A DNA stretch of 51,750 nucleotides, from the NCBI GenBank assembly GCA_043718225.1, contig JAYSWD010000065.1, positions 1 through 51,750 of the forward strand. The letters are read 5' to 3'. Positions within the stretch are counted from its first letter, which is position 1; each line of letters starts with the position of its first letter. The stretch comes from Candidatus Omnitrophota bacterium (GTDB lineage Bacteria > Omnitrophota > Omnitrophia > Omnitrophales > Aquincolibacteriaceae). This document shows positions 3,973 to 41,824 of the stretch, piece after piece. Below the pieces are notes generated by a model that was given only the letters and a program-made list of their open reading frames with translations, searched no databases and had not been told where the DNA came from. Made by a program: the position numbers and the translations under genes.

Positions 3973-3991
3973 ATAGGAAGCGGCTTTTTGT

Positions 3992-4483
3992 TTATTGAAG
4001 TATGACTGCGCCTGTTCCGCCGGAACAAGGTGAGCTTGTAAAAGCTCCCGAAGAAGTAGCGGAAGACCATGCGACGCCCGTTTCATCGACACAAAAAGAA
4101 TTATTCCCCGTGATCGCAGCCTGTGCGGGTTGAGCGAAAATCGCATACTGTGACGCATCGGTCCGCGCGTAAGTAAAAAGATAACCGCTTTTAGTTGCTG
4201 TCGTTCCCGCTCCCCAAGTCGAGTCGAGATAGGCTGGTGATGCGGCCGTAAGGCCGCTAATATCCGCAGGGTAAGACGGCGTTGCCTGCGCGGCGCGATA
4301 AGCTTCAATAGAAGTCGCGAACGTTTTCAAATTCGATTTTGTCGCGGATTCATTCGCATTCAACCGGCTACGCATCAAAGCCGGGATGGCAATAGCCACA
4401 ACAATACCGAGAATCGCTATGACAATCATGACTTCCACAAGCGTGAAACCTGTTGTTACTGAAAATAATTTGCGGCTAAACAT
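3992..4483 (-). CDS. Type IV pilin / prepilin-type protein
   Basis: Class III signal G|FTLVEVMIVIAILGIVVAIAIP with E5, plus a C-terminal Cys pair. Confidence 0.9.
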   Translation of the reverse strand: MFSRKLFSVTTGFTLVEVMIVIAILGIVVAIAIPALMRSRLNANESATKSNLKTFATSIEAYRAAQATPSYPADISGLTAASPAYLDSTWGAGTTATKSGYLFTYARTDASQYAIFAQPAQAAITGNNSFCVDETGVAWSSATSSGAFTSSPCSGGTGAVILQ

Positions 4484-12453: not shown

Positions 12454-13551
12454 TTAAACCGAGAAACGAAACAGCATGACATCGCCGTCTTTCACTATAT
12501 ATTCTTTACCTTCAACGCGTAGCAGGCCTTTTTCTTTGACGGCTTTTTCAGAGCCGCATGCGACTAAATCCTCATAACTCATTACTTCCGCGCGAATAAA
12601 ACCGCGTTCAAAATCACTGTGAATCACGCCTGCAGCCTGGGGCGCGGTCATGCCTCTCACAATCGTCCACGCGCGAACTTCTTTTTCGCCTGCCGTAAGA
12701 TAAGTGATTAAATTCAAAGTTTCATACCCGCAGCGGATGAGCTTATGCATGCCGGGTTCTTCCAATCCTAAACTTTCTAAAAAATCTTTTTGTTCGGCTT
12801 CCGACAATTCAATAATCTCGGATTCTACTTTTCCGGAAATCACAACCACCTTCGCGCTTTCAGCCGCGGCAATTTTGCGGACCTCTTCGACCAGCGGCCC
12901 CCCGCCCGGCAAGTCGCTCTCAGCAACATTGGCACAATAAAAAGTAGGCTTTAAAGTTAAGAAACTGCATTCTTTAACAGTAAGTTGCTCATCTTCGGTA
13001 AGTCCCAGTTTGCGCAAAGGCGTTCCGGCCTCGAGCGCTTTCTTAATTTTTTCGAGTGTCGGCTGGATCGCGAGCGCGTCTTTATCGCCGCTGCGCGCGA
13101 GTTTGTCATTTTTGGTAAAGCGCGTACCAATAGTTTCGAGGTCTTTTAAGCAAAGTTCGGTGTCGATAACTTCAATGTCACGCGCAGGATTGACGCTGCC
13201 GGAAACGTGCAAAATATTCGGGTCTTCAAAACAACGCACTACATGCATGATCGCTTCGACTTCGCGGATATGCGTTAAAAATTTATTGCCCAGGCCCTCG
13301 CCTTCGGCCGCGCCTTTCACAAGTCCCGCGATATCATAAAATTCAACCGTGGTCGGAACTTTGCTTTGCGGCTTGATCAGCTTGGTGAGAGTTTCAAGGC
13401 GGTAATCGGGAACAGGCACAATGCCCTTATTCGGTTCAATCGTGCAAAACGGATAATTCGCCGCCTGCGCGCGTGACTCTTTATTAATCGCATTGAAAAT
13501 CGTGGACTTGCCAACGTTCGGCAGCCCCACAATTCCGCATTTAAAGCCCAT
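12454..13551 (-). CDS. ychF: Redox-regulated ATPase YchF
   Basis: GIVGLPNVGKST, ANYPFCTIEPN, DIAGLVKGA, TGS domain ending YIVKDGDVMLFRF. Confidence 0.98.
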   Translation of the reverse strand: MGFKCGIVGLPNVGKSTIFNAINKESRAQAANYPFCTIEPNKGIVPVPDYRLETLTKLIKPQSKVPTTVEFYDIAGLVKGAAEGEGLGNKFLTHIREVEAIMHVVRCFEDPNILHVSGSVNPARDIEVIDTELCLKDLETIGTRFTKNDKLARSGDKDALAIQPTLEKIKKALEAGTPLRKLGLTEDEQLTVKECSFLTLKPTFYCANVAESDLPGGGPLVEEVRKIAAAESAKVVVISGKVESEIIELSEAEQKDFLESLGLEEPGMHKLIRCGYETLNLITYLTAGEKEVRAWTIVRGMTAPQAAGVIHSDFERGFIRAEVMSYEDLVACGSEKAVKEKGLLRVEGKEYIVKDGDVMLFRFSV

Positions 13552-13720: not shown

Positions 13721-16700
13721 TTACGCGGCTGAGGCGAAAACAAGCTGGGACAAAAAGGCTCGTGTCATTTCAATAAAACGGCCGGATGGATCGCTTAAAA
13801 ACTCATCTTTTTGAACCAATGGCGTATCGCTAACCGTCCATAATAGTCCTAAGGCCAACATCGCAGCTTGGCCTTGAGCAGCAACACGGGCGACTCCTTT
13901 GCGAAGGCTAGAAAATCGAACCTCACTTCTTCCGGTTATGATCACCGCTCGCTCAGAAACCTGAACTCGCATCAAAGCTTTCGACTCATCTCCGTTAATA
14001 AAATTAACACGTCCCCTGCCGTTTGGAATTGTGGTGAGCATCTGGGCTCGGTGGTCTTCAGAATCAGTTAATGAATCCTCACCATAAACTAAAAAGCGAA
14101 TCTCGGAACGTGTGTAGGCGGTTTTATAGAGCGCCAGAAAATTTTCTTCGGGAAGATTCCGCAATTCAACGCGCGAAATTAAAACTGTTCCGACTTTTTG
14201 AGCCGGTAACGTTTTCAAATTAAGCATGCGCTGCTCCGAACGCGCAAGAAAAAACGAATCGTGCTTACCGAAGAGTGGTTGCACAATTTCTTTGGGAAGA
14301 TCCAAAATATAAAATATATTTTCTTGCAAATCGATCTCGACATCTTTTAATTTGACCTTGTTCATACCCGAAATCATTGGGCGAACATTCTCATAAATCT
14401 GATAACGAGGATCGTTTATGAGCATTCGGGTCCAATCCCTGTATGTGCTTTTGTCATTTCCGAATGAACCTTCAAATGTTTCGACAGCCTGCTTAACCTT
14501 TGCATACGGGTCAATCGATGGCGTCACTATCGCATCAATGACATCAAGCCAGGCAAGATGCACCTCAGCCAAACTAATAATCCGAGTATTTGCAATGTAG
14601 GCATCTTTGGGTCCGGCCGCTACAATCGCTGCTTTCAATTTCGCTATATCCCCTGTAAGCGCCTCCCGAGTATTGCCTGTTGATAAAATAGTTTGTTTTA
14701 ATTCTGCCTGCCATGTTATTGATGCTTCGGTTTTTGCCTGTTGGCCGCCCCCCTTGCGACGCTGTCTTATATAGTCAGAATGTTTACGTTGCTTCTGCGG
14801 CGGAGGCTGAAAATGTGGCTTTGCAGGTGGAAAAAATCTCGGCACACTCGGCGCTGGTGCAGCGGGAGCCGGGGCCGCAGGAGCAGCAGGCAGCGGAATA
14901 CGAAACTGCCTTTCTGCATTTTCAAGTTTTGTTTTGAATCCACGCACCTCATTTGCAAGTATGCGCATTGGGCCGTCCACCAACGTGGTTTTTAAAGCCG
15001 CCTTTGCAACCAACAAAATATTAATGCCTTGAATTTCCCTTTCGATTTGAGCTAGTTCCTTTTTCCGCTTATGATAAAGTTCCGCACTGCCGATTTCCGC
15101 TTTCAAAGTTTCCAATATAGCCGGCAGGCGCTCATCTATAAATTTTTGTATCCTTGCTTTTGGTGAATTGTCCTCCGGCAAGGGGGCTGCCGCTACCGGC
15201 GCTTGCGGCGCGGGTTCTTTTTTAGTCTCGGCGCCCGTTGGGGCGACCGGAACACTTGCCGGTGCCTTCGCTGTTAATGCAGATTCCGTTTGCGGCGCAA
15301 CCGCAGCCTTGATGCTCACCGTTAGGGGTAAATCAAAAAATATTTGCGTATCTCGGATAGCACGCTCGAGCTTTTCAAATTGCGCGCGACCGGCTGCATC
15401 TAATTTTTTAAGATGGGGGCGCGTCTTTTCCAAAAGTTCGACGGCGCCGGACAAAGCCTTTTTCGCGGTTACGTTGTCACGCACGCTTGCACTCAAACTA
15501 GCCGTGTTCAAAATTCGTGACAAAGAAAGAACGCGTGAGTTGAAATCCTTTAAAACCACATCTGCATCTTGAGCGGGCAATACAGCGGACACTTGTGCCG
15601 CTGCCACAGCTACCACCGTTTTCCCTGCAACAATATTTTGTTTATAAACTTGCAAGGCCCGTGGCCAAGACCCATATTTAGTGACCATAACAGAATAAAA
15701 ACGCCGAACCTCTTCGTCTTGGTGAAAATGAATTTCTCCTGACCTGAGTTTTCCTTCGAGCACAAGCCGCGCGAAGAGAGCGTTTTCTTTTTCTTGAGTC
15801 CATTCCACCGGACGCGGACTATCTTTTTTAGGAATGTACAAAGCCCCCATTGGAATCCATTCGCGGTCCATGGCATAGCGGCGTATTTTTTTAATAATTT
15901 CACGGCGCCGCGCCCCAACGCTTGCCGGACTTATTTTAAGTGCTTCAGCTAGCGCAGTATCAGGCGCGGTTTTAGGTTCGGTAAAGCCTAAATCCTTATT
16001 TATCAATTCCCGGTGCTGGTCAGACCAGACAATATCTTTCACCGCGGTCTTGACTTCATTTACCTTCAAAACAGACCATTCAACAAGACGCGTCCAGCCC
16101 GTTCGCCGGTCTTTCAAAGCCAACAAGCCGGCGCGGCGCTGATTCTGAAAATTCGTGCTCGAAAGGCCCGTTTGTTCGAGTAACTTTCTAAAATCAGGCA
16201 AGAGCTCGTCCTCATCGGTGCTCAAGTAGCTTTTTACTAAAACATCTCTTTCTTTTGGCTCTAAAAAATTCCAGGCGTAACGCAATTCCATCATTTTTTC
16301 AGAATTGGTTCCGGCTAGCGGCGCACTCGTTCCATTGGCCCAGCGAAGATCCGCAATTGTAATTCCATAAACTTCAGGAATTCCGGTCGAGTAATCCAAT
16401 AAATCTTTTGGCTCTGTTTCGACGGGCAACAAAGGCTCAAAGCCATAATGCCGCAAGCCTTCGCGGATCGATCCAAACTCTGTTAAAATTTGGATCAAGG
16501 GCAGCAGTCCCGCTTCAAATAAAACAGTGTAAGTAATCGGGCCGCTCAACGCGAAGCCCGCGAGGGTTTGCCGAATATAATCATCCGTCCATTTATAGCG
16601 GATTACGGCTGTTGCGTTTTGAGTCCCCGCTTTTACAGCATGCGGCTTTCGCCATCTTACTTTTTTTATTTCCTCGTCAACCCACCCCTTTTGGATTGCA

Positions 16701-19700
16701 TGTTCTCGCAATACTTTTATAGTCATGCGTCGTAAATCCCGAATTTCCTGGCCATCGAAAGGCCCCTCGGCAACAAATAGTTTGTTAAATTCTGCTGCCG
16801 TTTCCTGGTCACTTTGGATGAATTCATTTTCAAAACCAAAATCGCGGCGCATCAGCTTGGCACCAGCCGGGCTTAAAATACTTCGCTCTGCCAAAACTGT
16901 TTCGACTTGTGCTGGCAAAATTCCGGTAATGGCGTGAAATTCATCTTCGGCTGTTTGAACATCGCGAAGTTCGCCGAGTGCCACTCTCCGCTCCTTGGAA
17001 ATATTTGTCCGGCCCAGTTGATATCCCTCTATCTTTAAAAGTTTGGCTATCGCGACAAGGGATGTCTGTGCGGTTTTCCCTTCCACTCCATATTGATAGG
17101 CCAAAACTAACCGTTGAATCGGCGTGAGGCGCAACCAGCCCTTCCGCAATCGCAAAATCTCTTTTTCTTTTGTTGTGTTCGTCAAATCTACCGCTTGTCG
17201 CAGCTTTTCAATGGAAACGCCGTATTCGGAAGGAATCCTCGCGTATTGACGCAACATGGGCTCACGATATTTATGGGCTGCTTTTTCAATTTCTAACAAT
17301 GTGGCGCGAATATGCCCGAGCCCGGTATAAATTCGTTTGCGCGTTGCCTTTCCTCCAAATTTTCTACTTACTTCCTTCGCTAAGGCTCGTTTATCATCCA
17401 AGCGGTTGCGGTTGATTCCAAAAAATCTTTCTAAAATATAAAATGTTTCCGGTTCTAATTTTAAAAAGTTTTCTTTTTTAATTTTTTCCTTGGAAATACC
17501 CAAAAACTCCGTCAAGTAATCCATGCCATCTTTGCCCGACAGAAGCAACGGTTTCATTTTAAAGTGATCGCTAGTGATATTCCGCGCGCTTTTATACCGC
17601 GCCTCCTCTGCTTCGGGATGCGCTGTTTTGTATCGATCAACCTCTTCGTTTACTTTGGCTAATACCGCGTCGTGGTCGAGCTGCTTTTCACGCCCAATTC
17701 CGTATTTGTAACGAATCAAAAGTTCACGCCTCAATGAAACCGACCTTAAAAAGTTATCGGTTATTTTTTCGACTGGGAGTCTTACTTCGTCCGCGAGAGA
17801 CTGCCGAGCGCCTTGGTCCGTCGGCTGAATTCTGCTAAAACCAGGCACATTCCCCGGGGGCGCCGCTGCGGGCGAACCTTTCTTTTTTTCCGTTATAGCA
17901 CTATACCCCGCCGCAATTGCTCTATTCTTTATATTCGACATAGTTGCTCCGACTGAAACTTCTGTGCTGTCGGCTGCGTCCGCAATTTGTCGATTTGAAT
18001 AATCAGAATGCTCACGCAATATTTGTATAATTTTCTTTTCTAAGTTTGAAAATGTCGCAACATAATCAGCCGGAAGTGTTGTTAAAAACAAAACATTTTC
18101 AGCGCGGGATGGTCTTTTGGTAATCCTTGTCGCATCAACAGACTCTATTTTCCTTTGGGCCGCAGTGCGCCCAGGCTCAGGCGGCCGATCTCTCCCTAAA
18201 GCTGAGTCTGCCAAATAAGAATGATAGGGATCTAATGCTCTCAACCTAAAAGCTGCGCTTTGGTGCGCTTTTCCGGGAGAAGCTCTTGTTGCGTCAAATT
18301 TACGAATTGCTTCATCACGCAGTCCTTTAATATATTCAGCGCGTTCTTTGGAGCGGCGAATAATTTGTGCCTGCCGCCAATTGAAAATAGCTAATTGCCA
18401 AATTTTTCTTCGAGAATTTTGTTCTTGATCAAGGCGAGCTCGCTCCCACAAAGCATAAGAGCCTTTTTCCACGGCTGCTAAAACTTCTTTTATTTCTGTT
18501 TCTGTCGGATTTTCAACGCCGGCCTGGGTCAGAAACAATCGCGCTTTCTCATAAAAACCAGACTGCTGGTCTTGAGAGTAAATTACGCCTAAATTTGAAA
18601 AGTTAACCTTGCCTTTTTTTTCGAGCTTTAGTAAATGATAAGGAGTTTGATAGTGCCGCATTTCTTCTAAAAGCTCCGCCATAGGAATCGGCAGCATATC
18701 AAATGGCATTTCTTGACTTCTCATCCGAGCAACGGCCTGATTGATTTCCTCAGGCGCCTGCTGCATGCCCCCGATCACTTGTGCGGCCCAAATACCTATT
18801 TTTCTATAATCTATTTCTTGAGCCCGTAAAAAATTATTTAAAATTTCTTTGCTGGAAAGGTCCAAAGCAGGAAAAAGCTGGGAAACAACCGGCCGCAAAC
18901 CCCGCTGTTCAGCATTAACTATCGCTTGGATTAAGTCATGCAGTGTAAGGACATTGCGCTTGGGAAAGCGCTGTTCTTGTGAAGAAAATAAGGCTCGCGG
19001 GTCTGATTCACCTTCTATGAAGGGCACCATTCTTTCTGACGGCAGGCCCGACTTAATACGCTGAATCCGCTTTAATCTTTCGGCGTCTGAAATGCGTGTG
19101 CCTAATTGCAAAACAGTTTTGATCTCGGATTGTTTTTCAATCACCCAAGGCTCAACGCGAAACCATGTCCATTCATTTGGATTAATTTGCTTTTGATCAG
19201 CCACGGTCAAAATACCCCATGCGGCTAAATTCTTAAATACTTCGCGCATCATGAGCGCATGATAATTTTCGGATGTTTCTATAATCATGGATGTTCTAAG
19301 CGCAAATCCTTCGCGAATCCAATCCAAAAAATTCGAAATTAATAATTCAAATGTATAAACATGCGCGCCATCTTCTTGAATTTCTGAATCAGCCGGTGTG
19401 TTTTTTCCAATACGCGTTTCGCTTCTAACAGACTTAGGAAATTTACGATGCGTTTCATCCACACGCTTCATCAGCGCTTCCGCAAAGGAAAAGTCTGTTT
19501 CTTCGATCACATGTCCTAGAATCCATCGATAGGAATCATAATCTGCCGGATCAAACGCTCTCAGCCGATAGCCTGGTACGGGCCGAAACCGTGCCCCATC
19601 AGGATGTTCAACTTTAATCTTGATAGGCTCTGCTTTTTGAATCCAGCCAAGGCTCAGAAATTTATCCAAAATTTTTCCGGCTGTGGTCGGTGATCGTCCT

Positions 19701-22700
19701 TCGAGAGTAAGCGAGGCTTGGGTCATTGAAAAAGAATTAAATCCAAATGTGCGGTACAAATTTTCAAAAATAACCAAATAAGCCCGAGCATAACGTTTGC
19801 GTTCAGGTTTTGAGTTGCCCTCAACCAGAGCTGTCACGGGTTTATCATCAGATACGGAAGGCAATGCGGCAAGCAAACCGGCCATTTTACCGAACAATTT
19901 TTTGGACCAAGCCGCATAGGGTGCATGCGGATATTTTTTATTCTCTTCGAAAATCCCTTTGCCTGTCATAGTTTTGCGTATAGCTGATATTTCCTCGCGT
20001 TGAACATGGATACCAAAACGCCTTTCCAGAAACCATTGCTCATTTGTATCCAGCAGCGCCCAAATTTGCTTGAGGTCTTCTTCGCGGCCTGGTGCTTCCA
20101 TTTTTTCTGCTAATAATGTCCAACCTGTCACGCGTTGCGCTAAACATCTTTTAATTTCAACAAAGCGAAAAGATAGCATTGCCCCCGTAACCTTGAATTT
20201 TCTCTGCGCTTCTTCGCCCGTGTATTTATGTCCTGTCTGCTGAACAAAGTCATACAACGCGCGATTTACTGGGGAAAGCGCAAACAGCACCTCTTCGTCA
20301 ATTGCATCTGCATTGCCTAGGGAAACATCCTTTTCTTGCGGAGCACCAGGTTGCAATGTTGGTAGTGGCGCTGACTGTGGAACCGGCATAACGGGCTTAG
20401 CTGGTTGCGCTGTTGCAAGCACCGCGGTTGTCATAGGGTCGATAACTCCAGAAGATGCCGCCAACAAAGCTTCTTTGATACGCCGCAGCATGGGGTAAAT
20501 TTTTCCAGCTGTTACAGAAACATTGAATTGTTTATTGAATAGCCGGACTATTTCAGAAATTTTGTTCACACGATTCATCCCGCGGCCAAAGTACCGGTCG
20601 AAAACAAAACGCTCTTCTTCATTAAGGCGATCAGCAAGGCTTTTGTCTATTTCCGCCTCAGGTTTTTCAAGCCATGCGGCGATGAAATGCCAGGCGGTTT
20701 CGCCTTTTGTGGCTTTGAGTTTCTCAAGTGCGCTATAAATAGTCCGATTTGTCTGAGCGCGGCTCACCTCAATGTCATATTTTGCTTTCATCCAACGCAC
20801 AAGCTCTTCCATGTCATTGGTATATTCGGCACCAACACCATACCAATGCCGCAAAAGTAATTCTTCCGTCCGTGATACTTGCCAAAAAAGATCTTGCGTG
20901 ATCTTTTCAACCGGAACATCAATACGCGTGCTTAATTTTTGAATATCTCGCGCCGGCCCCGAAGCAGTAAAGCGTTCGGGATAAGCCGCTTTTTCCACAT
21001 CCAGCGGGTCAATCCCATAATATCGCAACACAGCATCCCAATCTTTATGTTGCCTTAAAAAGGCACGATAAGCCCGCTCATTATCTTCGCGAACGCGGGT
21101 AGCGGTGAGCAAACTTAAATCGTTTCGCCTTTCATCGATAAACGCTAAAAGATCTTCGCCTTTCCATTTCCATGCGGGGTATTCGCGTTTATGATCACGA
21201 TTTTTAAGTCTATTGAGCGCTTGTGCTTTTGTATCGATAATATCTTGATTTGTCAGAGTAATGTTCCGCGCAGCAAGCTCGACTTGGTGTGTCTGCGCTA
21301 ACTCAGCGGCAATAACACGATGATCTTCTTCTAAAAAAACACCCAGCCCAAAAGCGCGCCTCAAAACAGCTTCGTATGGAATAACTCCCTGATTTTTAAG
21401 ATTCAACAAAACACGCGGAATAATTTCTTCCGCTTCTTTTGGGACAATCCCGGTTTCTTTTTCGAGGGCCTTGTAGCCGTTATCGCGCCCCTTTAGTTTT
21501 TTGAAAGCTTTCTTGCGCTTAACCCAAACCGTGTTTTCATCAATCCCCCCCATCGCCTTGGCCAGTGCGGAAAAAGATGTCAATCTGGTTTCACCCAAAC
21601 CAAACTGTAAAGTTAAAATTTTTCGCTCATCCGCGGTTAAATACAGCCACGTAAGCCGCAAGGCTTCAAGGCGCTTGCTTTTAAATTTTTGAAAGGGCCT
21701 TGCGCTAACCTGTATTAATTCTTCAATTGAAACATCAATCTCTGCGGGGAGTTCGGTTGGCAGCTTGCGTTTTCGCCCTGTTCCGCTGTCATCCTCATCG
21801 GAAGCAACCGGTTTCTTTTTGAAAGATTTCAAAATTGCTTCGACGGGCAAATTAACCATGCTGGTGTGGGTTTTAAAAAAATCAGCCAGCGCTAAAAAGC
21901 GCTCGCGGTTCTCTTTGTTTTCATCCTCTAAGTTCAGTAAATCCATTTGCGCGGCAAGTCCGAAAAAATTTACCGCGGCTTTTGCGGCAACATCCATCGG
22001 AACAATCTTATCTTCGATAAAGCCTCTTACTCCTTCGGCGGCATCTAAAAACCCTTCTTTAAATTTTTGTTTTTGATTAAAAAATTCCGGGTTTCGAGAA
22101 AACCTGTCCTTTTTTGTTCTTTTAACTGCTCCAAATGCTGCGTTATATGCATGCCCAATCATCGTGATTAACCAAATGTATGTTTCCCGAAGTTCACTCT
22201 GTTCGTTTGCCGCTCGGTTACGCAGGCGGTCTTTTGCAAGCACCGCTTCTTCCGGATGAGCTCCGCTTAAATCCTCGTCTTCCCCCCGGTCGTCCGCAGC
22301 AGCCGCATCTTCTGCCGTCTCAAATTCAAATTCATCGGTCATTCGAATAGTTTTGGGAGAAGACAGGGCAGCTCCGGACCAGGCAGGAAATTGTTCTGTA
22401 ACCCAATTTTTTATTTTCCGCCCCGCGGGCGAAAGATCTTCGTCACCTTTATTTTCGCGGTTAAGAAAAACTGCCTGAATTTTTGGATCAAACCACTTTG
22501 TTTCGGGAATGCTATTCAATAGCTCATAGGCTGTTTCTTGCCAGTGGCCGTCAAGAGCAGAATTTTTTGAAATGAGATACAAAATAAAATACGCAATCCG
22601 CAATCGCGCTTCCGGATCAACTGGCCAAGCCTTCGATAAATCCGTTATCGCGAAAGCACGGAGCAATTCAAAGTAAAACCCCACGATTTTTTTTCTTTCT

Positions 22701-25700
22701 ATGGCTTTTCCATCTTTATCCTGCCATTGCTTCCAGCCAAAGCGGTCTCTGCCGCCGCTTCCTAAAGTTAATCTCTCAGCCAGGCGTTCGAGCAAGTGAA
22801 TTAATCGTCCGTGATATTGCGCAGCATTGGCTGTTTCATCGTGTTTTAAATTTTTAAAAAAAAGCGGGTGAAGATCCAAGGCGCTTACAACCTGTTGTGT
22901 CGGGGGTTTGCGCGTTTGACCATCAACCAGCTTCATGTCATCCAATACCAGATTGATGCGCGCTTTGATTTTCAAAAGGCTCGCGGGAGCAAGCGGTTCC
23001 AGGTCCGGATACAAAATTTCGTGATTCGAAGAACGCGCACTGTCTTCATTATCATCTTCTATTGCCGTTTTCGCGGCAAACGGCGCATTGGAATTAAAAG
23101 TTTGCGCGCGGGCTAAAAGTTCAGCGCGTGCTTTTTCAAGCTGTTCAACCAACTGCAAATCCGGATCTGTAAAACGAGACCGTCCCAGCTGAACAACTTC
23201 CTCGATAAGCGCGTTCACCGCTACAATCCAATCATCTCCTTCATTGCCCGTGTTTAAAATAATTCTGCTTTTTTGATCCAGTAGTTTTGGAACCTCTGCT
23301 TTAAGCAGCGCCTGCAGCCGTATCAGTTTCGCACCGGGAAGAAGCCCTTGAAAATTTCCTGCCGCAGTGAGCGCTGCCCCGGCAGGAGCGGAGCTGAAAT
23401 TTTCAAAAGTCGCAACAGCTTGCTTGAGCTTTGAAAAAAGAGCATTAGACGCTTCATCATATTTGTCTATATACCCTTGCATTTTTTGAATAAAAGGCAC
23501 CGCTTGCTCATGCCCATATCTTCCTTTTGCTCCGCTTACGAATTTCTCCATCCATAGCATCCACTGTTCAATATTTGCGCGCACATCCTTGGGGAATGAA
23601 TTTTTTTCTGAAGCAGGTTTTTTTGTGTCCGCCTGTTTTATTGCCGGAGCCGGTGCTTCAGTTACATTTGTTTCTTTTGAAAGATCCCATAGCCCTTTTT
23701 TGATTAATGCGCCTCGAATTTTCAGCAATATTCCGCGCAAACGCTCAGCATCGGAAGAAGCATCATTCCTTAATTGTGGAACGAACTTTCCTAAATATTC
23801 CTGCAGGCGTGGATAAAAATCAGGGTCGGAAATCAATGCTTCGGCTTCAAGCTGCTTTAAAAAGGAAGTCAGGCTTAATTCTATGCCTGTATAAAAAAAC
23901 TTTGCTCTTGAAACAGAAGCTATTGCGTGGTCAGGTGCCAAATCAAAAAATATTTTTCCCGCAAAAAAACTTTCTTGCCCCTGAGCCGTGTTTAATTTTG
24001 CGTCGGGATCAGTAAGCCCTTGTCCCGTTCTTATTTTTTTCTTATCCTTGATCCACAGCTCACGCAGTAATTCCAAGGGCATTCGTCCTTTCAGGATAGG
24101 CGCCTCGGCAATTTGCCGCACTGTAAACTGTCCCCTGTTCGGTTCAAGGCCTTGTGCTTCCCGTAAACTTATTTTTACTAGATGAATCAGCATGCCAAGT
24201 TCATAAGAAGTCCACTCTTCCCCTTCGCGATGAGCATCCAGCAATTCAAGAATTTCTGCTTTTTCTTCTTCGCGCATTTCGGAGCGCGTTGGAATTAGAA
24301 CTGTCCAAACCGTACCGATTTTCACCGTTTCTTGATCGAGAAGTGCTTGGCTTTCAATTTTGGCATGAGGATCACGTCCTAAAAACCTGTTAATAAGTTT
24401 GTGTCCAGTGCCTTTTCCGTGAAGACGAAAAACTTTCTTCAATTCCCCTAGACGGGCCGGTGAAGCATTTTGCTGGGCTCCTCCGTCTCCGACATGAATA
24501 AAAATTCTACCGGCTTTTCTTTCCCACCAAATCTCAAAAGGCCTCGAAGTGTCCCCTGAATTGCCATGCACTACTGCATTTGTTAAAAGCTCAAGCAACA
24601 GATCGCGCAGTTTTACATTAAAATCGGTGCCCGCATAACTCAAGCTTGGACTTTGCAGTTCCGGCCGATACCCCACCCAGGCATCAGCCCAAGCCTCGGC
24701 TGTAATCGCAGCAATTTCTTTAAGCGCTAATCCTAGCGCTGCCGGCTTCTCTATTGTTTCAAACACTTCAAGACCAGAAAAGCGCATTATGCTTTTTTGT
24801 TCAGCAAACATGCTTTTTGCCACTCCGAGTTCGGCTGCGGACTTTGTCTTTGTGGTTCCAAAAGCTGCAATTGGATTATTTTTAATATTTTGGCGGCGAA
24901 CATGAAATTGCCGCATAAGCGCAGCATCTCGTATTTCCGAGCGCGCAGGCTCCAGCTCCTCTTCCGGAATAAGCTCATGATAAAAAATCTTGTCGCCGGC
25001 GCGATCTCCTTCTCCGCGCGCCTCATGCATCACGTTTGTAAGGTAGCGAATAATTGTTTCGGAAGTTTTTTTGTCCGGGCTTGTCAGTAGAAATTCTAGG
25101 CGTAGATTTTCTGCTTCGGGTTTAATAGATTTGAGCCGGGCTGAATATCCCGCATGCCGCCGAGAACCGACGCGCAACTCTGCCCACATATCTTTTTTAA
25201 GTTTTCTTTTTTGGTATCCGGTTTTATAAAGCGTGCCCATATCCCAGTCTTTAATTGTTCCGATGGCGTCCAAGACCTCTTGCCATGTTTGCTTTTTTGG
25301 TTTTGTTAACAGCTCCGCAAATGCCAAGCTATTCCACTCATCCGTATCCAAAATATCAAAAACTTCAGGGCCTGTTTTTTTACCCGTGTACCGATCCATC
25401 AACAAAGTGCGATAGCGCCCGATCCAAAATGTTTTGTCCGGGTTTTCATTTGAAAATGCGAAAACAAGTCTGTACCTTTTTCCCTCGGCACCGGCGCTTT
25501 TGATAAATATTTTTACGCGCTCTTCTCCGGGCTTAAGCGGTCGCAAACCCAAATTGGTCAATTTGTGAATGAAGTTTGGAGCAATAACCATTAAATCAAG
25601 GTGCCCGCGCGCAATGGCTTCTCCCAATTCTTCGTTCCCTACAAAATCAGGTAAAGATTTTTTCGATTTCTCCCAATCAATATCCGCGGGCTGCCGGAGA

Positions 25701-31700: not shown

Positions 31701-34700
31701 TAAACGTTGTAAGTCATAAATTCATGCCGCCCCTGTGGTGCGTCGGTCAAAACAACAATCGCGGGTCCTCCGCCTTGCCGCGTGTCTTCGGCGAGCAAAT
31801 AGATTGTGTGCGGAATGTCGGCATTCACGCCATATTCTGGCGGCAAATATTCTTTTAACTCACGCAGCGGAAAGTTTCTCTCAAGGGCTTCGGCTTTAGC
31901 GCGAATGCGCGCAAGATCTTCGGGTGTTACAGGGTTTTGCATTTGGGCGATGTCCGAGAGTTCTGTCGCCAATTCTTTTTGCGCGTGCTCGGGCAAAGCT
32001 TTATAAGCGGCATTCAGCAGGCGCGCCTCTTCTAAAACCACCTGCATTTGCGGCTGCTGCTTTAAGGTCTTTTCGAGTAAGTTTCCGTGAACAATATTTG
32101 GATAATTTGCGACCACCATTCCTGATTGGTCAACCGCGCCCGGCACAGTATGAAGCGCCTCTCCCATCAATAAATTATCAGCTCCGTTTCTCAGTTCAGG
32201 CACCCAAATACCATTTTTGTCTTTCCAAAGTCCGGCTATTGTTTGCGATAAAATCGGCGCGAATAAATGTCTCGTCTCGCGCGCGGCTTGTCCGACAATT
32301 CCGTCTGTCGCAAGCCGTACGGATTCGGCGGGATCGAAACGAAGAATAAAACTGCGCTCAGGCGCCATCGCGGCCTGCGCCGCGGCTTTCAAAACGGAAT
32401 TCACTCCGAAGGCCGTGCCAAAGAAAAATGCCGCCGCTGTTTTTAGAAAGCTTCGGCGTGAAAAACTGCTTTGTCTTTCCATTTTTTGCGCATGATATTT
32501 TTCAAATAATCTTTGTTTAAAAATAATTTGCGGACTTTGCTCAATCGCAATAAGTTTGGCAGTCGCAATTTCACGAATGATTCCAAGCGCAACAGCTGTG
32601 TTTTCCCTCAGTCTCTCAAGAAATTTCCCCAGGCTTTCAAGAAGTTCATCATCGGTTTCTCTGTTTTTTTGGGCAAAATCAAAAAGCTTTTGAACAAACT
32701 CGTCAAGATTTTGCGCTACTCTCAACTTGTCCTGTTCCACTTCTCCGGGACCCCGCATTTCGGAGCGATAGCCCGCTTTTTTAAGAATTTGTGCGGCTTT
32801 TGGGTTTCGCGCCGCACGGTCTTGTAATATCTGAATTAATCCGTTTATTTTTCCGCGGCCGCCTTTCAAATGCGCCTCGACCGCGTTGGTTAAAAGCTCA
32901 AATGCCCGGTCGCGCAAATTTTTTCTTTCCTCAATTGCAATGAGCAAGAGTTCGTCCACAAAAGTTTCAAATGCAGCGCTGTAATTCAAATCGCTGAGAA
33001 AAATCACGGTCGCGGGTCTTTCGGAATTGAGGCCGGATCCCTTGAGTAAATTGATAATATGCCGGAATACACGTCCGGGATCACGGCCCGCGGTTGTTAA
33101 AAGTTCGTGCGCGGCCTGTTTAGACCTTTTGCGCTTGCGCACATCTTCACTCTGTCCCTCTGCGCGCCTTTGCCGGCGATCAAATAGAGAGGCCCTCTCA
33201 AGCAACGCCGACGTTGCCGTCCAGCCGTTACGCCGCATTTCGGAGCGCGGCAAGGTGCGCAAAATAAATATTTTTTCTGTTTGGAAGGTGGGCGGTACAA
33301 TTCCCAAGCTTAACAGATCGGCTTCGGCTTCTGTCGGCGCGCGCGTTTGCCATGTTTTTTCATCCGGCAAAATTTCCCAGCCGCTTTCCTGAATCAGCTT
33401 CTTGAAAGCAGCTTCATCCCGGCCCGGATTGAGAAAAATTCTAAGCAGCATTTTTGCGCCGGGACGGGCTTTTGCGGCAGTTGACTCGAAAATGTCGGCA
33501 AACTCTTGCGGGGAAAGTTCCACATTGGAGATGTCTGCCGTGCTCCGGCTTCCCTTGCGGACAGACGCGAGCGGAATTCCAAAAAAACACTTCGGCGCGT
33601 TAAACATATAAAAATCTGCTTCCGGAATTTCGCCAAGAAACAATTCGAGGTCGCGCATACGCGACGGAATTTTCTGCGCAATCTGTGCCTGCGTGTTCAT
33701 AAGTTTCAGCAAACTTTTATCTGCGCCATAAGCTTTTCTCGCTCCAAGCTCAAGAAAAATCGCGGTGTTCGCACCGGACCCAGAACCAATTTCAGCGGCA
33801 TCAAGTTTTGATAAATCAATTTCGTTGTCTCGCACGAGCCGGCGCAGCTGGCCCGCCAGTGTCCGTGAAGATTTCTCGTCCGGAGGATATACGGTCGGGA
33901 AATAAACGCCGCGCTCTCCTTGGACCACCAAGCTTTCAGGGACAATTTGTCCCTCTCCGAAATGAGTCGCAAAAAAAAGGCTCTCTCCAAGCTTTGCGTT
34001 ATACCGTCGCGTCAAAAATGTTTTTAACTCAGCTTCTGAATAGCCGTCTACTTTTTTCTGCCTTCCAAAAAGGGCCTCTTGTTCCGGTATCAAAAATTCA
34101 TAAATCAGTGTTGTTTTGTGCTGGCCCATTTCCGGCCAAATAATCGCGGCGGGTTCGTTTTTAAAAGTTAAAATATACGCGTCCTCCGCTGTGTCCGGCG
34201 GCGCTAAGAAAGCGGGGTTTTTAAAATTTTCCCGAATATGCGGTACTCCAAATATTTCTTCCAAAGACTGGTGCACCGCTTGCTTCAACGCGGCGCCTTG
34301 GAGCCCGACCACAGAATTTTGCGCGACAGGAATTTTCCCCCAAGGGCCTTCGAAAGGTTCTATTTCCGCGCGCGCCGAATCTACGCCAAACGCTTTTAAA
34401 AAATACCAGATCGGCATCTGGTCTGTAATTCCTTTCAGCCGCATTTCTGAGCGGCCGAAGAGTTTTTTGCGTGCTAAATCAATGACATGCTCGGTAATAA
34501 TTACCGCCGTAAAAAATGCGGGTGAGAACGCAAAAACCATCCCGCCCTCCGGCAAGCTGGTAAGCCGAATTGTTTTTGTTGCTTCATAAATCCGGTATCG
34601 AAATCGATTCCGCATTTCGGAGTGGTTTTTAGTTAAATAAGCGTTCTTAAAAAACCAAAACGCGGCTTTTTTAGCGGCAGCCAACATTTTGCTCCATTCT

Positions 34701-37700
34701 TCTACCGTAAACACCGTGTTGCGCGAAGGAATTACATCATTCGAGTCGAAAAATCTTTCCCATTCCAATTCATTTTCGGGCAGCTTTTCGGCGGTTTGCG
34801 CCAGCTCGCGTTTATTTTTTAAAATTTCCAGAGTCAAGCCATATGTCTCTTCCCAGATTTGTATTCGTCTTCCCGCTTGTCCCGTTCCTGTTCCAATCGC
34901 CGCTGCTTCGCGCGCCTGCCTAATAGCTTCGGAAAAAATCTGTGCAGTTTCCCTGCGCCCAATTACCATCCGCGTTTCGGAGCTCAGAGAAGTTAATTTT
35001 CCGCCTTGAGAATGAAATCGCATTGCAACAAGCGCGGCTTGCTCGCTTAATTGCGCAATGCTGGTTTTGTGATCAAATGGAAATCTTAATTTCCAGCGTT
35101 GGTTTCCCGGTGGGTCTATCCATAAAACACCTTCGTGTTCCAGCACTTTTGCGATTTCCAAATTAGCGGGTGAAAGGGACCTTGAGTTAATCCAAAGCGT
35201 TGCGTGTCCGATTCTTAAATCCGATCCGTTAGCGGAGGAAAAAACCGTCGTTATGCCCTTTCCAAAATTAAGAATTCTGGCACTTTCTACGAGCGCCGGA
35301 TCTACAATTGCTTTTAATTGGTCTTCATCAACAACCGTTTGTTGAAGAGGCGCGCCAATAGAAGGCAAATCCGCAATCAAAACAAATTGTGCAGCTAAAG
35401 GAAAAAATCTGTCACGAATTTTTACATTGCGTTTTGCGGTTGACGAGCCAATGAGCCGGGCAAGAGCATTTCGAGAAACCTGGCTTACTTCCTCGTCATT
35501 ATCAATCCGTGTGTTAACTAAAAGAGCAGCGACTATCAATCGGGCTTCTGCTTCCGTTGGAATATATGCTTCTGTGCTTTGGCTCCATTGCAAAATCAAT
35601 TCTATTGCGCTTATTTTTTCGTCATTCTTTCCTTCGGTTAACTTTCGAACTGTTTCCTTGATATTGAAAGCACGCATTTCGGAGCGGGTCACTGTTTCCG
35701 AATAAATTTGATTACCGTCATAATATTGATCGAGCTGCTTCCAGCGCCCCTTTTTTAGATGGTATTGAGTTATTTGAATAAAGTTTTTGACGCCTTGCAA
35801 ATTTTTAAAGAGCGCCTGCTGAAGAGCGGGGTTATCATTTTGCTCCGTCATTAAGAGCGCATTCACGCCCCATGCCTGTAGTTCCTTAGCCGCGCTGTCT
35901 TGGACAGCTTTAACGCTTTTATCTTCCTCGCCGCTTTTTCGGTATAAATCAACATAGGCTATATATGCCGCAACCATTTGTTTATGTTCCACCCTCTGCG
36001 CTAAGGCCGACCGAACGGATATTTTTGCTTCTTTGAGCCAAATATTAATTTGGGGAATATGCCTAGCCAGCTCCGCTAAAAAAAGTTCGGATTCTTTCTC
36101 GGAGTTCCATTCTATCGTCCTCATTTCGGAACGTTGGGCTTTGCCATTCTCTTCTCTCTTTTCTATTCGGGCGGGGCTTGTTAGGTACTGTTTCCAATAA
36201 TGTTTGAGCGCAGCGGGCGAAAGCGGCTTTCCGCTCATTTGTTCTTGGAATAAACTTCTTTCAAATTCACGATCCGTTTTAGAGGTAACGTCAAAGGGCA
36301 AATATTCGACCTCGAGCATGTCGAGCGTTTCAACGGCCAGCTCACGCGCTTTCACAATTTGCTGCATGACTTTTTCTACTTTGGAGTCAACCTGGACGGT
36401 ATTAGTTTCCAAATCTTTAGGGAACATCGCACTCGCATCAACAAGCCAGGCGCCCCAGGCCATCATGCCCGCCAAAATCAATTTCCCCGGATTCTGTTCT
36501 TTCCGTATTTCGGAGCGGGCGGGAGCCCGCAAATCCGTGCGTGCATATTCGTAGACTTTGCCGGTGCCGGCCCAATTGGGATGGCGGCTGAGCACGGTGC
36601 CGCCGACTTTGCGGGCAACGCCTTCTCGGCGATGCGCAGTTTTGTAGCGAAAGCCGCGTCGCAAAATTTCCTCGTTCAATTTTCTCTGCAGGTCCGTACC
36701 AATGCCGCGGCCGCGCATGCTCTCGTCAACAACCATGTCTTCGGAGTAAACGGTATTGCGCAATTCCATATTGGAATCCTGCGCCACACCGCTCAGCCCT
36801 CTAAATTTTTCAAGCGGGCCGGCCAAAACAAAACCGATAATCCGGCCGTTTTGTTTAGCTACAAGACTGATTTTTTCCGGATCGGTAAAGGCGTCACGCA
36901 ACATGGCTGGGGTATAACGCAAATTTGCTTCAAAGGCGCTTTCGAGCCGGATGATGTCGTCTTTGATTTGCGGCCATGCGTCCGCGGCCGGCTGGCTGAT
37001 TTCAATCAACGTCTCAACCGGCGGAATGGGCGTGACGGGGGGCGGCGCAATCGTACCTTCTGGATGCAACGCCACGCGCACACGTTGATAAGTTTTGGAG
37101 CCGCCCATCCAGCGCGGAAAAGTTTTGAGAATCTCCGCTTGCAGCAGCTGACTAACTTGTTTTTCAAAAACATGTGCGCCGAAATAAGCGTAATTTTTTG
37201 CGCGCGCCTTGGCAATCACGGCGTCGCGGAATATTTTGCGCACGCCACGGCCCTCCAATCCCGGCGCAATCGCCAGCGAAGCCAGATAAAACGTATTTCT
37301 TTTATTCCATTGATCGTCTTCTTTGTTTCCGGGGATGGAACCGTATTCTTCAAGCGGGCCGCCCACAGCATAGCCGACGATTTCGCCTTTGAGTTTGGCA
37401 ACCAGCGTCATGCCGGCCGGGTTTTTGAATTTTTTTGCGAGCGAATTTTCTGCTTCGCGCAAATTTGAGGGGAATGTGTTTTCGAGCGCCATGACATCCG
37501 TCTTGCTTCGGTCCCAATCATTGCCGGAAACCGTTTCGAATTGGACATCCTCGGGCTTCCAGGCTTCGTAGCGGTAGCGGCCGCGCGTTAAATCCGCCAC
37601 ATAACCCGTTACATTTCCCTGAGTCTGCCGCTGCCCGAACAATGAGGTGCCACGCGGAAAAGCTTCCAAAAATTGCAGGCTTTCGTCGTCGGCGCGCAAC

Positions 37701-40700
37701 ACTTGAATGGTTTGCTGCGTTGCACCCGTCGAAGCGACATGTGCGATAAATTTTTTGGGCGTCGCGTTGTGGGATACGGCATTGTAAATCACCTTTTTGA
37801 AACCAGCTTTGTACGCATATTCTTCGATCGCACGCTTGATCACGGCCGGATCCACCGACATCGTGCCCTCGACGCTATCGATAATCAAAACGCCCGCATC
37901 TTTATCTTCCGCATCTTTGTAAATTCCCGCCGCCATGATGGCGCGCACTTTCCGGTCGGAGCCCAGCGCAAAATCCATCATGGAAATGCCTTTGCTGAGC
38001 ATGTAACCATAAGCGCCGGTTTGAAATTGGCCGCCCAAAAAAGCGCAGCAAAAAAATTCGCCCTGCCGGCTTAAATCCGTCCATGGGTCGCGATCCCAAA
38101 TCGTCGCTTCAATCATACCTGAGGTCAACGTATAGTCGGAAGTAAGCGATTCCAAATAACCGATGAGCGCCTGTTCGCCGCGCGAGCGTTTTTTGATGTG
38201 GTGAATTTTGATTTCGTTCAGCAGGTAAATGCTTTCGTCGAGCGTGACCGTGCCTTCGCGGATATGCTTAAAAATTTCCGGATATTGCGCGAGAATTTGA
38301 CGCGCACTTTTAGCGCCTTTGCGCAAACTACCCGTCAATTCGCCTTCTTGTAAGATGCCGGCGTCGTCCCTTTTTCCAATGAATTGCTCGATGACAGCCT
38401 TACGGATTAAATCCAAATGCGTGGTAATGGGCCGAGCGATAAAGTCATCACCTTCGGAAGCATATTGCACGCGATAACCGGCGTCGTCCCACAACTCGTT
38501 CACGCCGGCATTCTTCAAACGCTGTTTGACTCTTTTTGTATGCGCCCAATTTTCGAAAGCCCCGCGAAAGTCGCGATATTTCAACATCATGGCCGTCAAA
38601 TACGCCAAATCATCCAAACGTACAAATCCGGGGTCGCTACGCTCCACCCTTTCTTCATATTCCGCTTCAGGTTGCGGTTCGGGCGTTGGCAGCAATTCGG
38701 GCTGGGGCGTCACGCGTTGCGGCGAAGAAAAAAGCCACGTCAAAAGAAATAAATATTCGATCGCCGCCAAGAGTGCTTGGCCGCCAAACCACCAATAATT
38801 TCCTTTTTGAAAATTAGCAATGGCCCAAACCGTCATGCTAATCGCCACAAAAAGCCTTATCAGTGGATGCGGCTTATTCTCGTGGCTGGGTCTGCTCGTC
38901 GGGAGCACCGCCTGGCTGACATTGCGCAAAACACGCGCGGCTCGGTTTCTGACTTCTTTGGCACGGATATAATTCGGCAACAATGTTTCGGGATCGAGTT
39001 GATCCAAGGTCGCACGACGCGGTTCATGAGCATGAAATTTTTCTCTTAGCTGCTCATACCCTCTCAAACGCAGCAGCCCTTCAATTTCCCGCACCGAATG
39101 ATAACGCTCGTCCGTCGAACCGAAGCGGCGGCGATTGCGGATCACGATTTGCGCCTCTACTTGATTCAGCACGCGGAAACGCGTAATCGGCTCGACCAGC
39201 GTATGCTGTTGAACAAATTTTTGAATTTCAATCAGCTTGACCATGCTGGTTTCGTCGTTCGGCTCGGCCGCGGCCACGGCCAGCCGCGCATGCGCGACTT
39301 CGTCAAAAATTAAATCCTCCTGCTCGAGAATATATTCGCGCAATTCGGCATCGACACTCGTCTGCATTTTGACAATTTCCGCCGCTTCCTGAATGATTTT
39401 GAAACGCGCTTCCAAATCCGCGCTTTGAACAAATTTTTCTTTGAGATGCGCAACGCGCGCGCGCGCGATTTCATTGGCCTTGCGCTCCACTTCCGCTTCA
39501 ATACCCGGCTTCGCCTGCGGAAAAAATTGCGTCCAATATTTAATTTGCCGCACAACGCGCACCCGCTTCTCGTCATCCGTGCCATCGAGATGCGGTAAAA
39601 GCAAATCAATGATGGCTTGCGGCATGCTGTGAAATGAGGCGCGCGGAAATGCGGCAAGCTGCTTCGAAAAATCGCTTAAAAAGAATGGGCCTCTTTCTTT
39701 GGGCCGCACAAAAAACCCATTTTTCCATAAATAATCAAAAGCATCGTAGACCTTCTTAAGCGGAGCATCGGCGTCACTTTGATCCCAATATCCTTTTGCA
39801 CGCATTCCGTTCTGATCGGCAATGTCGGCGGAAAGTCTCGGCGTAAAAAGAATGTTTTGAAGTACGCGCAGTGACAGTTCGACCCGCATTTTAGCCTTTT
39901 CTGCCTCGGTCCGCTGCTCCGAGCGCCGCCCCAGCTTTGTAATATTGTTTTTGTTTTCCGCGCGCGCGGAAAAGGGCTGTTCTTCATTCCAGCTTGTCTT
40001 TCGAAAAATTAAGTTCTGATTTTTTGGCGCGGGAGTCCGCATTCCGGAGCGAATATTTCCCCCCGAATCAACCGCGTAGGTTAAACCGCCGCGGTTCAAC
40101 CTACGCGTTTTAAGGCGCGCCTGGTCTGCGCGTATGGAAAAAGTCTGGCTTGTCCAATCGGAATGTTGACTTGCAAGATTTGAAAGACGGAGAAGCTCAG
40201 GTCTTAAATTTGAGAGTGATTTCAAAAACAATGTCGGCGATCTTGCGGCCTGAACAACCGCGCCACGAGCCACGGCCCACGAACCACGAGGCATATTTGA
40301 AAGCATCGCTTGGCGGTATAAATTTTGATGTTTGACTGAAAGCCCAGAAATACGCGGTGTTATAACTTGATAGGAAAATCCATGCGCGCGCAAAATTTTT
40401 GTAATCCCCTCTTTGTGGAATCCGCCGAAAACAAGCACCGCCGTGCTTGTTTCGTGGTTAGTGGTTAGTGATTCGTGGTTCGTGGCTCGTGGTTCGCGAA
40501 TCTTTGGTCTTTGGTCTCTTGTCTCTTGTCTCCAGTCTAACAAGGTTTTTTCGACAGCTCGTTCACGAATGGCAGCGAGCTCATAAAACCGCAGTGCGGA
40601 TTTAATTTGGCTTTCCCATTTTTTGGAAATGACGACGGGGGCTTTTTTGGTTCGCGCGATCCAAGCCGCAAGTTTCTCTGTATCGAGCGATGCGCTTTCG

Positions 40701-41824: not shown

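Follow-up and report, generated by a model that had tools for sequence, protein, structure and literature searches.

A conserved RSExR pentapeptide marks the cassette edges of a giant Omnitrophota protein, a candidate cellular polyprotein

The window analyzed here is a stretch of 51,750 nucleotides from a Candidatus Omnitrophota bacterium (assembly GCA_043718225.1, contig JAYSWD010000065.1, positions 1 to 51,750), and it contains a giant open reading frame (ORF) on the minus strand (13721-41824), of 9,367 codons and with a GTG start under translation table 11, whose product (protein P0001) is punctuated by the pentapeptide R-S-E-x-R. This motif marks the edges of independently shuffled cassettes and is under selection at the protein level. 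As far as sequence comparison indicates, the giant ORF belongs to a very large modular family with two conserved caps, so far known from Omnitrophota only, and it may be a cellular polyprotein that is cut at the motif. A first-pass annotation, made from the letters of the window, had described the motif as a mark between unrelated modules, which is upheld by the motif counts and homology edges reported below, since these show a real and strongly selected motif. The annotation had treated it as a feature of one protein; it is instead a hallmark of a large Omnitrophota family.

The part of the giant ORF at 21825-41824 showed 0 differences and no joints in relation to the Logan contigs of two DNA runs (X1 and X2), so that an assembly artefact is unlikely; both runs probably derive from the source sample and are not independent of the assembly.

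Abundance of the motif in the giant ORF, the genome and its relatives

Counted as a regular expression, RSE.R occurs 17 times in the giant ORF, against 0.23 copies expected from composition, and 2,000 shuffles of the protein, a check that the first-pass annotation had suggested, gave a mean of 0.22 and a maximum of 3. The copies lie at aa 634, 1770, 1898, 2047, 2458, 2860, 3020, 3568, 4087, 4604, 4903, 5628, 5847, 7467, 9195, 9239 and 9299, exactly where the annotation had placed them, and its division into nine RSEMR, three RSEIR, two RSEQR and one each of RSEAR, RSETR and RSEVR was also correct. One-off variants were counted 22 (.SE.R), 21 (R.E.R), 19 (RS..R) and 18 (RSE..) times, which is about background after subtraction of the 17 exact copies. 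Among the variant copies listed in the annotation, HSEMR at aa 2401 (34610-34624), a probable degenerate copy, and RAEMR at aa 3597 (31022-31036), in which Ala replaces Ser and which has the R-A-E-x-R form that is standard in other lineages, look genuine because the tetrapeptides SEMR and AEMR are each expected less than 0.1 times; the one-off variants as a class do not exceed background.

The genome of the window (G000) has 2.32 Mb in 186 contigs, a G+C content of 46.6% and a completeness of 88.8%. It shows 211 RSE.R copies in ORFs of at least 100 aa, 193 of them in ORFs of at least 1,000 aa. With a lower limit of 800 aa the count is 197 against 3.0 expected, and ORFs of 200-799 aa contain 10 against 6.1 expected. 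The count in the rest of the proteome, which had also been suggested, thus places the enrichment in ORFs of at least 800 aa, and the shuffles together with this contrast between ORF lengths rule out chance or composition as the source of the motif. Motif-bearing giants make up about a tenth of the coding capacity of the genome, by summed ORF lengths.

The same holds in relatives. A set of 101 longer relatives contains 400 copies of R[SA]E.R against 12.4 expected, with L, V, M, A and I as the most common residues at x, and 198 family proteins contain 1,138 copies. The distance between consecutive motifs has a median of 294 aa and quartiles of 144 and 515 aa (n=951 intervals), which is the size of ordinary proteins. 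Directly behind the motif, 41% of the copies have S, A or T, and the residues before it are enriched for A, S, V and P. The favored spelling changes with lineage: RSEMR in the genus of the window, RSEVR in genomes G021 and G018, RSELR in many relatives and RAELR in G013. The last genome shows 11 RAE.R copies, nine of them RAELR, against 0.35 expected. Serine is therefore dispensable, which rules out its phosphorylation or its use as a nucleophile as the role of the site.

Location of the motif at cassette edges

No full-length orthologue of the giant ORF was found, even within the genus, and only single modules match other proteins. One such module is the cargo module at aa 2463-2859 (33248-34438), located between RSEMR at aa 2458 (34439-34453), directly after which the homology to five other giants starts, and RSEMR at aa 2860 (33233-33247), where it stops. 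This cassette recurs in giants of G001, G004, G010, G015, G009 and G021, and in the alignment the similarity opens directly after one motif and closes at the next, with unrelated flanks. Its boundaries are spelled RSEVR in G021, RSNVQ and RSKIR in G015, and RAAQT and RAVLR in G009, and the divergent spellings in these three genomes indicate that the position of the junction is older than its exact spelling. The first-pass annotation had called this module a methyltransferase, for which no Pfam match was found at E≤0.05; a GxGxG stretch seen in the alignment makes a methyltransferase possible. A second module, at aa 1898-2047, is bounded by RSEMR at aa 1898 (36119-36133) and RSEMR at aa 2047 (35672-35686), and is also found in G002, there between RSESR and RSEAR.

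Local alignments between the giants of the window's genome agree with this location. Only five of the 172 high-scoring segment pairs (HSPs) of at least 80 aa span a motif, whereas randomly placed motifs are spanned by 79.5 on average and never by fewer than 44. The end points of the HSPs are not enriched near motifs (2 and 15 of 172 within 15 aa), and the evidence from HSPs consists therefore in the avoidance of spanning alone.

Comparison of Pfam boundaries with motif positions, another check that the annotation had proposed, was carried out for the giant ORF and four relatives, and none of these five proteins has R[SA]E.R inside a Pfam stretch. A three-domain UDP-glucose dehydrogenase lies intact between two motifs. 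The claim that exact copies fall outside domains thus stands for the Pfam stretches and does not extend to the copies at aa 9239 and 9299, which lie within the conserved C-terminal domain.

Turnover of cargo is seen in a protein of 5,072 aa from the congener G004, whose N-terminal domain is 52% and C-terminal domain 83% identical to those of the giant ORF and whose cargo is almost wholly different. After a homologue of aa 5362-5623, the G004 protein continues directly with RSEMR and the C-terminal domain, and the alignment of this domain opens exactly at the motif. The giant ORF has in this place 3,566 aa, between RSEIR at aa 5628 (24929-24943) and RSEQR at aa 9195 (14228-14242), that are missing from the G004 protein. 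Such presence and absence indicates a block gained or lost exactly between two junctions.

Level of selection on the motif

The information of the motif is confined to its five codons, with about 2 bits at codon positions 1 and 2 and 0.3-1.4 bits at position 3. The weak third positions show that selection acts on the protein. The codons are biased as well: in the window's genus (n=193) the motif is written with CGC in 130, TCC in 141, GAA in 174, ATG in 89 and CGG in 98 copies, while the background shares are 32% for CGC, 16.5% for TCC, 73% for GAA and 16.5% for CGG. AGY serine codons are found in eight of the 193 copies against a background of 35%, and in one of 57 copies in congeners G002-G004. 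The typical spelling is CGC TCC GAA ATG CGG (for example at 34439-34453 and 33233-33247), with different codons at the two Arg positions, CGY and CGG.

A pattern of 14 nucleotides built on the motif occurs 80 times in this genome, 7-59 times in congeners, 39 times in G008 and 0-3 times in other families of the order, and its reversed control occurs 0-1 times. In G013, RAELR is encoded with diverse Ala, Glu and Leu codons, and the first Arg is still CGY in nine of 11 copies. This diversity indicates that the fixation of nucleotides is lineage-specific. The codon fixation at the level of the genus is best explained by junctions that descend from each other by copying or recombination, with a possible contribution from selection for accurate decoding of critical residues.

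The capped family

Members of the family show a common layout: a Sec-like signal or anchor followed by an N-domain of about 500 aa, cargo modules, and a C-domain of about 175-200 aa. In the giant ORF, a segment similar to a signal peptide or signal anchor (aa 1-27, 41744-41824, ending in ...LAFA/KT) was read from the sequence, and the combination of n-region, hydrophobic stretch and A.A pattern is also present in 16 paralogues. The conserved N-domain follows at aa 28-560 (40145-41743), with the stretches IQDAH..EAQ.NI, EEG, GGAEYA, FYE.A..RD and GGFH. In its tail there is a variant of the motif, RSGMR at aa 592 (40037-40051), whose status is uncertain, and the first junction after the domain is RSEQR at aa 634 (39911-39925), about 160 aa past GGFH. 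The first motif lies 100-140 aa past GGFH in 91 of 186 relatives.

In the window's genome, no fewer than 16 large ORFs start with this N-domain. By exhaustive profile search, the domain was detected in 9,563 cluster representatives at E≤1e-3, a number that falls to 6,325 at E≤1e-30, and always at the N-terminus. It was matched at E≤1e-20 in 112 of 151 sampled Omnitrophota genomes. The window's own family is covered completely (50 of 50 genomes), and most of its genomes have at least 12 scored matches each; at the same threshold, several other Omnitrophota families in the sample have no match. In a word-based search that returned 101 longer proteins, all those with a named source belong to Candidatus Omnitrophica or Omnitrophota. 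Among the best 80 genome loci with the N-domain, informative titles are Omnitrophota or Omnitrophica, with the exception of one "uncultured Planctomycetales", and many are titled "uncultured bacterium". The cargo of the 101 relatives includes methyltransferases, radical SAM (S-adenosylmethionine) enzymes, NUDIX, glycosyltransferases, sigma factors and SecA, as well as phosphoenolpyruvate (PEP) synthase, tRNA-modifying enzymes, WD40 and HEAT. The idea that housekeeping genes are hidden in polyproteins was rejected for the window's genome, where SecA and four sigma-70 genes stand alone. ORFs that start with the N-domain reach lengths of up to 23,964 aa in G009, G013 and G059 (for example on contigs G009:C88, G013:C3 and G059:C48), and the domain was matched 49 times in G009, including split pieces of single domains, and 28 times in G013.

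Numbered by the family alignment, the N-domain has four invariant residues, His35, Glu62, Arg381 and His431. This His/Glu/Arg/His pattern is reminiscent of Tiki/TraB/ChaN, and profile matches to these proteins stayed below threshold. With the Tiki/ChaN family PF04187, one of 20 members matched at E=1.9e-5, and matches within the window's own genome had E=0.0018 and 0.09; PF18934 reached E=0.003, which is not significant; and hhalign of the N-domain with a TraB protein gave E=0.11 and a probability of 0.5%, along the GGFH stretch only. No profile match of the N-domain to the Tiki/TraB/ChaN/erythromycin-esterase superfamily thus reached significance. The sole PF04187 match among the 151 genomes, in G142, is unrelated to the N-domain. 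Searches of PDB with two family profiles gave nothing meaningful.

The C-domain of the giant ORF starts with the junction RSEQR at aa 9195, 173 aa from the C-terminal end, and extends to aa 9367 (13724-14242), ending in ...LVFASAA. Two copies lie inside it, RSEIR at aa 9239 (14096-14110) and RSEVR at aa 9299 (13916-13930). In 54 of 74 complete family members the last motif is located 170-210 aa before the end. The end itself is conserved: [AS]A in 156 of 198 family proteins and, among the motif-bearing giants of the window's genome that end at a stop codon, [AS]A in 13 of 18 and any A in 15 of 18. In contrast, [AS]A terminates just two of the 29 giants of this genome that lack motifs. Such an end resembles ssrA-type degrons and some type I secretion signals. 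The C-domain has no PADLOC or PHROGs match, and near-length word-based searches, which are weak evidence, found no stand-alone homologue.

The N-domain also heads a paralogue of 2,344 aa (5276-12310, minus strand), which ends in ...IASMA, shows a weak match to glycogen phosphorylase (PF00343, E=2.4e-7) and has the motifs RSEFR (10292-10306), RSETR (6173-6187) and RSEAR (6146-6160), all on the minus strand. The paralogue comes two genes after the giant ORF in the downstream direction; ychF (12454-13551) lies between them.

Module starts and internal signals

Internal signals of the twin-arginine translocation (Tat) type that are followed by a hydrophobic stretch number 10 in 542,058 aa; nine of them have a motif upstream, and six of these nine lie within 40 aa after it (random mean 1.1, maximum 5, 300 trials). 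Hydrophobic segments behave in the same way: 42 start within 30 aa after a motif (random 24.3, standard deviation 5.0), and 10 end within 30 aa before one (random 23.8). In the window's genome alone, a hydrophobic segment follows 18 of 197 motifs, with a random mean of 5.3. Furthermore, lipoprotein-type signals are present directly after motifs in protein P0122, and a crude heuristic for Sec signals after motifs gave a modest enrichment, 15 against 8.6 (standard deviation 3.1). Their position next to the junction suggests that these internal signals are real features. The giant ORF has a Tat-like signal at aa 3113-3147 (32384-32488), with M-E-R-Q-S-S-F-S-R-R-S-F-L-K, a hydrophobic stretch and AQA, 93 aa past RSEMR at aa 3020 (32753-32767); the Pfam model TAT_signal matched it at E=0.024, below the cut-off.

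Tat signals act at the N-terminus. If these Tat and lipoprotein signals work, modules would be released in the cytoplasm and each would be routed separately, which weakens the idea of a single exported precursor. The first-pass annotation had seen in the giant ORF one exported precursor of effectors, and this part of its proposal is doubtful, as modules carry their own Tat-type or lipoprotein-type signals after the motif.

Layout of the cargo in the giant ORF

All features of the giant ORF are on the minus strand. Downstream of the first junction, the better of two GNAT acetyltransferase stretches is found at aa 1632-1728 (36641-36931; PF00583, E=1.6e-15), followed by the RSEIR junction at aa 1770 (36503-36517) and a hydrophobic segment. 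Beyond the modules already described, RSEAR at aa 3568 (31109-31123) precedes an alpha/beta hydrolase at aa 3731-3935 (30020-30634; PF00561, E=6.4e-13). A protein kinase domain at aa 4264-4357 (28754-29035; PF00069, E=1.6e-11) lies between RSEMR at aa 4087 (29552-29566) and RSEMR at aa 4604 (28001-28015), the latter with four hydrophobic segments before it. A SAM methyltransferase at about aa 4745-4836 (27317-27592; PF08241, E=2.1e-8) is followed by RSEMR at aa 4903 (27104-27118). Inside the variable block, a HATPase_c_2 stretch at about aa 5745-5798 (24431-24592; E=2.7e-4, below the Pfam cut-off) precedes RSEMR at aa 5847 (24272-24286), and RSETR is located at aa 7467 (19412-19426). Pfam thus recognizes the GNAT pair, the hydrolase, the kinase, the methyltransferase at 28000-27119 and, below its cut-off, the HATPase that the annotation had named. 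Nine further modules of the giant ORF match no Pfam family at E≤0.05, with the exception of the weak TAT_signal.

The region at aa 5852-9194 (14243-24271) has about 3,340 aa with RSETR at aa 7467 as its single motif and forms most of the block that is missing in the G004 protein. By eye it shows many repeated segments similar to helix-turn-helix, and Pfam gives only a weak HTH_AsnC match.

Cleavage, docking and other explanations of the motif

The motif is strict and context-free, and its spelling shifts with lineage, from which we infer one trans-acting reader per genome. We propose that one factor per genome would read the pentapeptide R-[S/A]-E-(M/L/V/A/I)-R, and that this factor is most likely a sequence-specific endopeptidase that would cut the giant product into separate proteins; some of these would be directed onward by Tat, Sec or lipoprotein signals of their own. 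Cleavage at the motif, by which the giant ORF would be a cellular polyprotein, has in our judgment an even chance of being correct.

Several observations weigh against cleavage. The C-domain contains motif copies (aa 9239 and 9299; RSE[IL]R-[FL]V[IV]Y in relatives, the counterpart of the copy at aa 9239; and a terminal RSELR, which in one subgroup of relatives lies 17 residues before the C-terminal end), and a subset of relatives shows motif-like copies 50-95 aa past GGFH, with Ala in 43 and Ser in 29 of them at position 2. These copies in the C-domain and in the tail of the N-domain count against cleavage because a protease would cut them too unless they were buried. The linkers can be very short: only 3-4 residues separate the last conserved strand of the module at aa 2463-2859 from the motif behind it. 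The same module has no stand-alone homologue of 218-695 aa in a word-based search, which is weak evidence; it indicates that some modules did not originate as captured genes. The giant ORF has motif-free stretches of 1,615 and 1,723 aa, and some N-domain giants of G016, G024 and G009 have only one or two motifs in their first 6,666 aa; these motif-poor giants may hint at subclasses. A Sec-like N-terminus stands ahead of cargo that needs cytoplasmic cofactors (GNAT, kinase and SAM methyltransferase). As to the protease, Peptidase S8 and C39, both proposed in the literature, were not found in the 88.8%-complete genome, the N-domain matched no Pfam, NCBIfam, PADLOC or PHROGs family, and the neighboring genes are housekeeping genes (RlmN, CorA, an ABC transporter, phosphoglucomutase and DUF4301).

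The main rival to cleavage regards the motif as a site of recognition or docking that stays uncut, bound by a trans-acting partner such as a chaperone, a factor for targeting or translocation, an assembly scaffold or an Arg- or Glu-modifying enzyme, and the giant as one membrane-tethered multi-enzyme chain. Docking explains the strict, context-free conservation of the protein sequence and its lineage shifts equally well, is compatible with the very short linkers, and fits the copies inside the C-domain and the N-domain tail better than cutting does; furthermore, as far as the available text goes, Nielsen & Lui 2026 treat such proteins as single membrane-anchored polypeptides. However, Tat-type and lipoprotein-type signals right after the motif would be hard to use without a free N-terminus, RAELR in G013 excludes a serine-directed modification, and no candidate partner was identified. 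On balance we regard docking as a doubtful alternative, one that deserves to be kept in mind.

An unlikely alternative is that the motif is mainly an evolutionary joint for in-frame exchange of cassettes, by microhomology or a site-specific recombinase, with its conservation as a by-product. The nearly fixed codons in the window's genus, where AGY serine is almost missing, the recurrence of the 14-nucleotide pattern in relation to the 0-1 occurrences of its reversed control and the block indel located exactly between two motifs speak for such a joint. Its conservation nevertheless follows codon periodicity with the weakest signal at third positions, G013 spells RAELR with diverse codons, and the motif is kept across the phylum as protein while its nucleotides differ. 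In addition, the copies all have direct orientation and keep the frame, the two probable-source DNA runs showed no joint at any of them, and 15 bases are known to be short for homologous recombination.

It is very improbable that the motif is a signal of mRNA or translation (an internal start, an RNA-processing site or a programmed pause) by which modules would be made without proteolysis: x is ATG in 89 of the 193 copies here and GTG in all four copies of G021, codon choice is biased and modules start like proteins, but non-start codons are common at x (GCG 20, TCG 10, TTT 8; CTT, CTC and TTA in G013), which rules out an internal start codon as a general mechanism, no Shine-Dalgarno-like or other conserved sequence was found upstream, no Rfam family lies inside the giant ORF, and the R, S/A, E and R residues, unnecessary for a start, are themselves conserved.

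Comparison with known systems and literature

Giant proteins of Omnitrophota have been proposed to be cleaved (West-Roberts et al. 2023, bioRxiv 10.1101/2023.11.21.568195), and the authors state that they lack information on the points of cleavage. Nielsen & Lui 2026 (bioRxiv 10.64898/2026.06.07.730766) describe, in the accessible text, a class 1 of "multi-enzyme metabolic clusters" with a catalogue threshold of 10,000 aa, and discard internal signal-peptide calls as artefacts. The giant ORF, with 9,367 aa, is just under this threshold and is the same kind of protein: like class-1 giants it has an Omnitrophota host, carries many unrelated enzyme domains, transmembrane segments and a signal on one chain, and is tiled by distinct Pfam families, none dominant by copy number. 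In the accessible parts of West-Roberts 2023 and Nielsen & Lui 2026 there is no junction motif and there are no N- or C-terminal caps, and the text of the latter, as far as available, has no mention of motif, cleavage, linker, polyprotein, processing or junction. No publication was found on the RSExR motif or on cleavage sites in Omnitrophota giants; the supplements of these works may hold more. In the literature examined, to the extent that it was accessible, multi-enzyme giants of Omnitrophota are thus already known, and the junction motif and the two caps appear to be new.

The likeness to MARTX toxins and viral polyproteins drawn in the first-pass annotation is apt as to layout, with interchangeable cargo between conserved ends and a junction that is conserved as well. 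MARTX toxins have conserved repeat-rich ends, exchangeable effectors and an internal cysteine protease domain that cuts at linker Leu residues. As in these toxins, conserved N- and C-terminal parts of the giant ORF flank variable cargo, and a mark, here a candidate one, for processing lies between units. In contrast, the giant ORF has no RTX/MARTX repeats or Peptidase C80 (Pfam at E≤0.01, whole protein), its junction is a strict pentapeptide, its cargo includes Tat and lipoprotein precursors and housekeeping-type enzymes, and the capped family, known here from sequence alone, has many copies per genome.

Viral polyproteins are cut at short sites, by flavivirus NS2B-NS3 after basic residues that a small residue follows, and in other groups by potyvirus NIa and picornavirus 3C. 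The giants share with them one long product with a short conserved site at each boundary of protein-sized units, and a junction with a basic end followed by S, A or T in the share given above. They differ in that they are cellular, have no recognized embedded protease and show thousands of cargo combinations, and in that cleavage here is a proposal. In polymorphic toxins, the boundary of the exchangeable C-terminal domain is marked by VENN in CdiA and by PxxxxDPxGL in Rhs. The giants also have a short motif at the point of module exchange, conserved in its nucleotides too within the window's genus, but they have many junctions per protein, cargo that is not recognizably toxic and no immunity genes, and neither a VENN nor a DPxGL motif was seen among the Pfam matches of the giant ORF.

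Other features of the window

The window also contains a gene for a 23S rRNA-intervening-sequence protein (43704-44204, plus strand; PF05635, E=5.8e-36), which adjoins an ORF of 568 aa without Pfam match (42001-43707). A partial tRNA cut by the end of the window (51671-51750, plus strand; RF00005, 30.8 bits) is the sole Rfam match in the window. A small ORF (3992-4483, minus strand) shows in translation a prepilin-type N-terminus (…GFTLVEVMIVIAILGI…), and it is overlapped by a longer ORF call (3556-4308) whose C-terminal part is RNase H-like by eye.

Implications for Omnitrophota

For the question whether the giants of Omnitrophota act as single chains or as cut pieces, a junction motif with hundreds of copies per genome provides concrete candidate cut points. 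"Dark" giants can be split at the motif into protein-sized units for structure prediction and annotation, and the motif unites into one family thousands of proteins whose two caps match no Pfam or NCBIfam model. In-frame turnover of cassettes may explain how giant genes grow. More tentatively, it is possible that many Omnitrophota express much of their accessory proteome as capped cytoplasmic polyproteins, whose junctions would be cut by a dedicated endopeptidase and whose modules would fold or leave the cytoplasm by means of their own Tat, Sec or lipoprotein signals, with the junction serving also as an exchange point for in-frame cassettes. If this is true, giant genes would behave like open-reading-frame integrons, in which the cargo varies among congeners and the caps persist.

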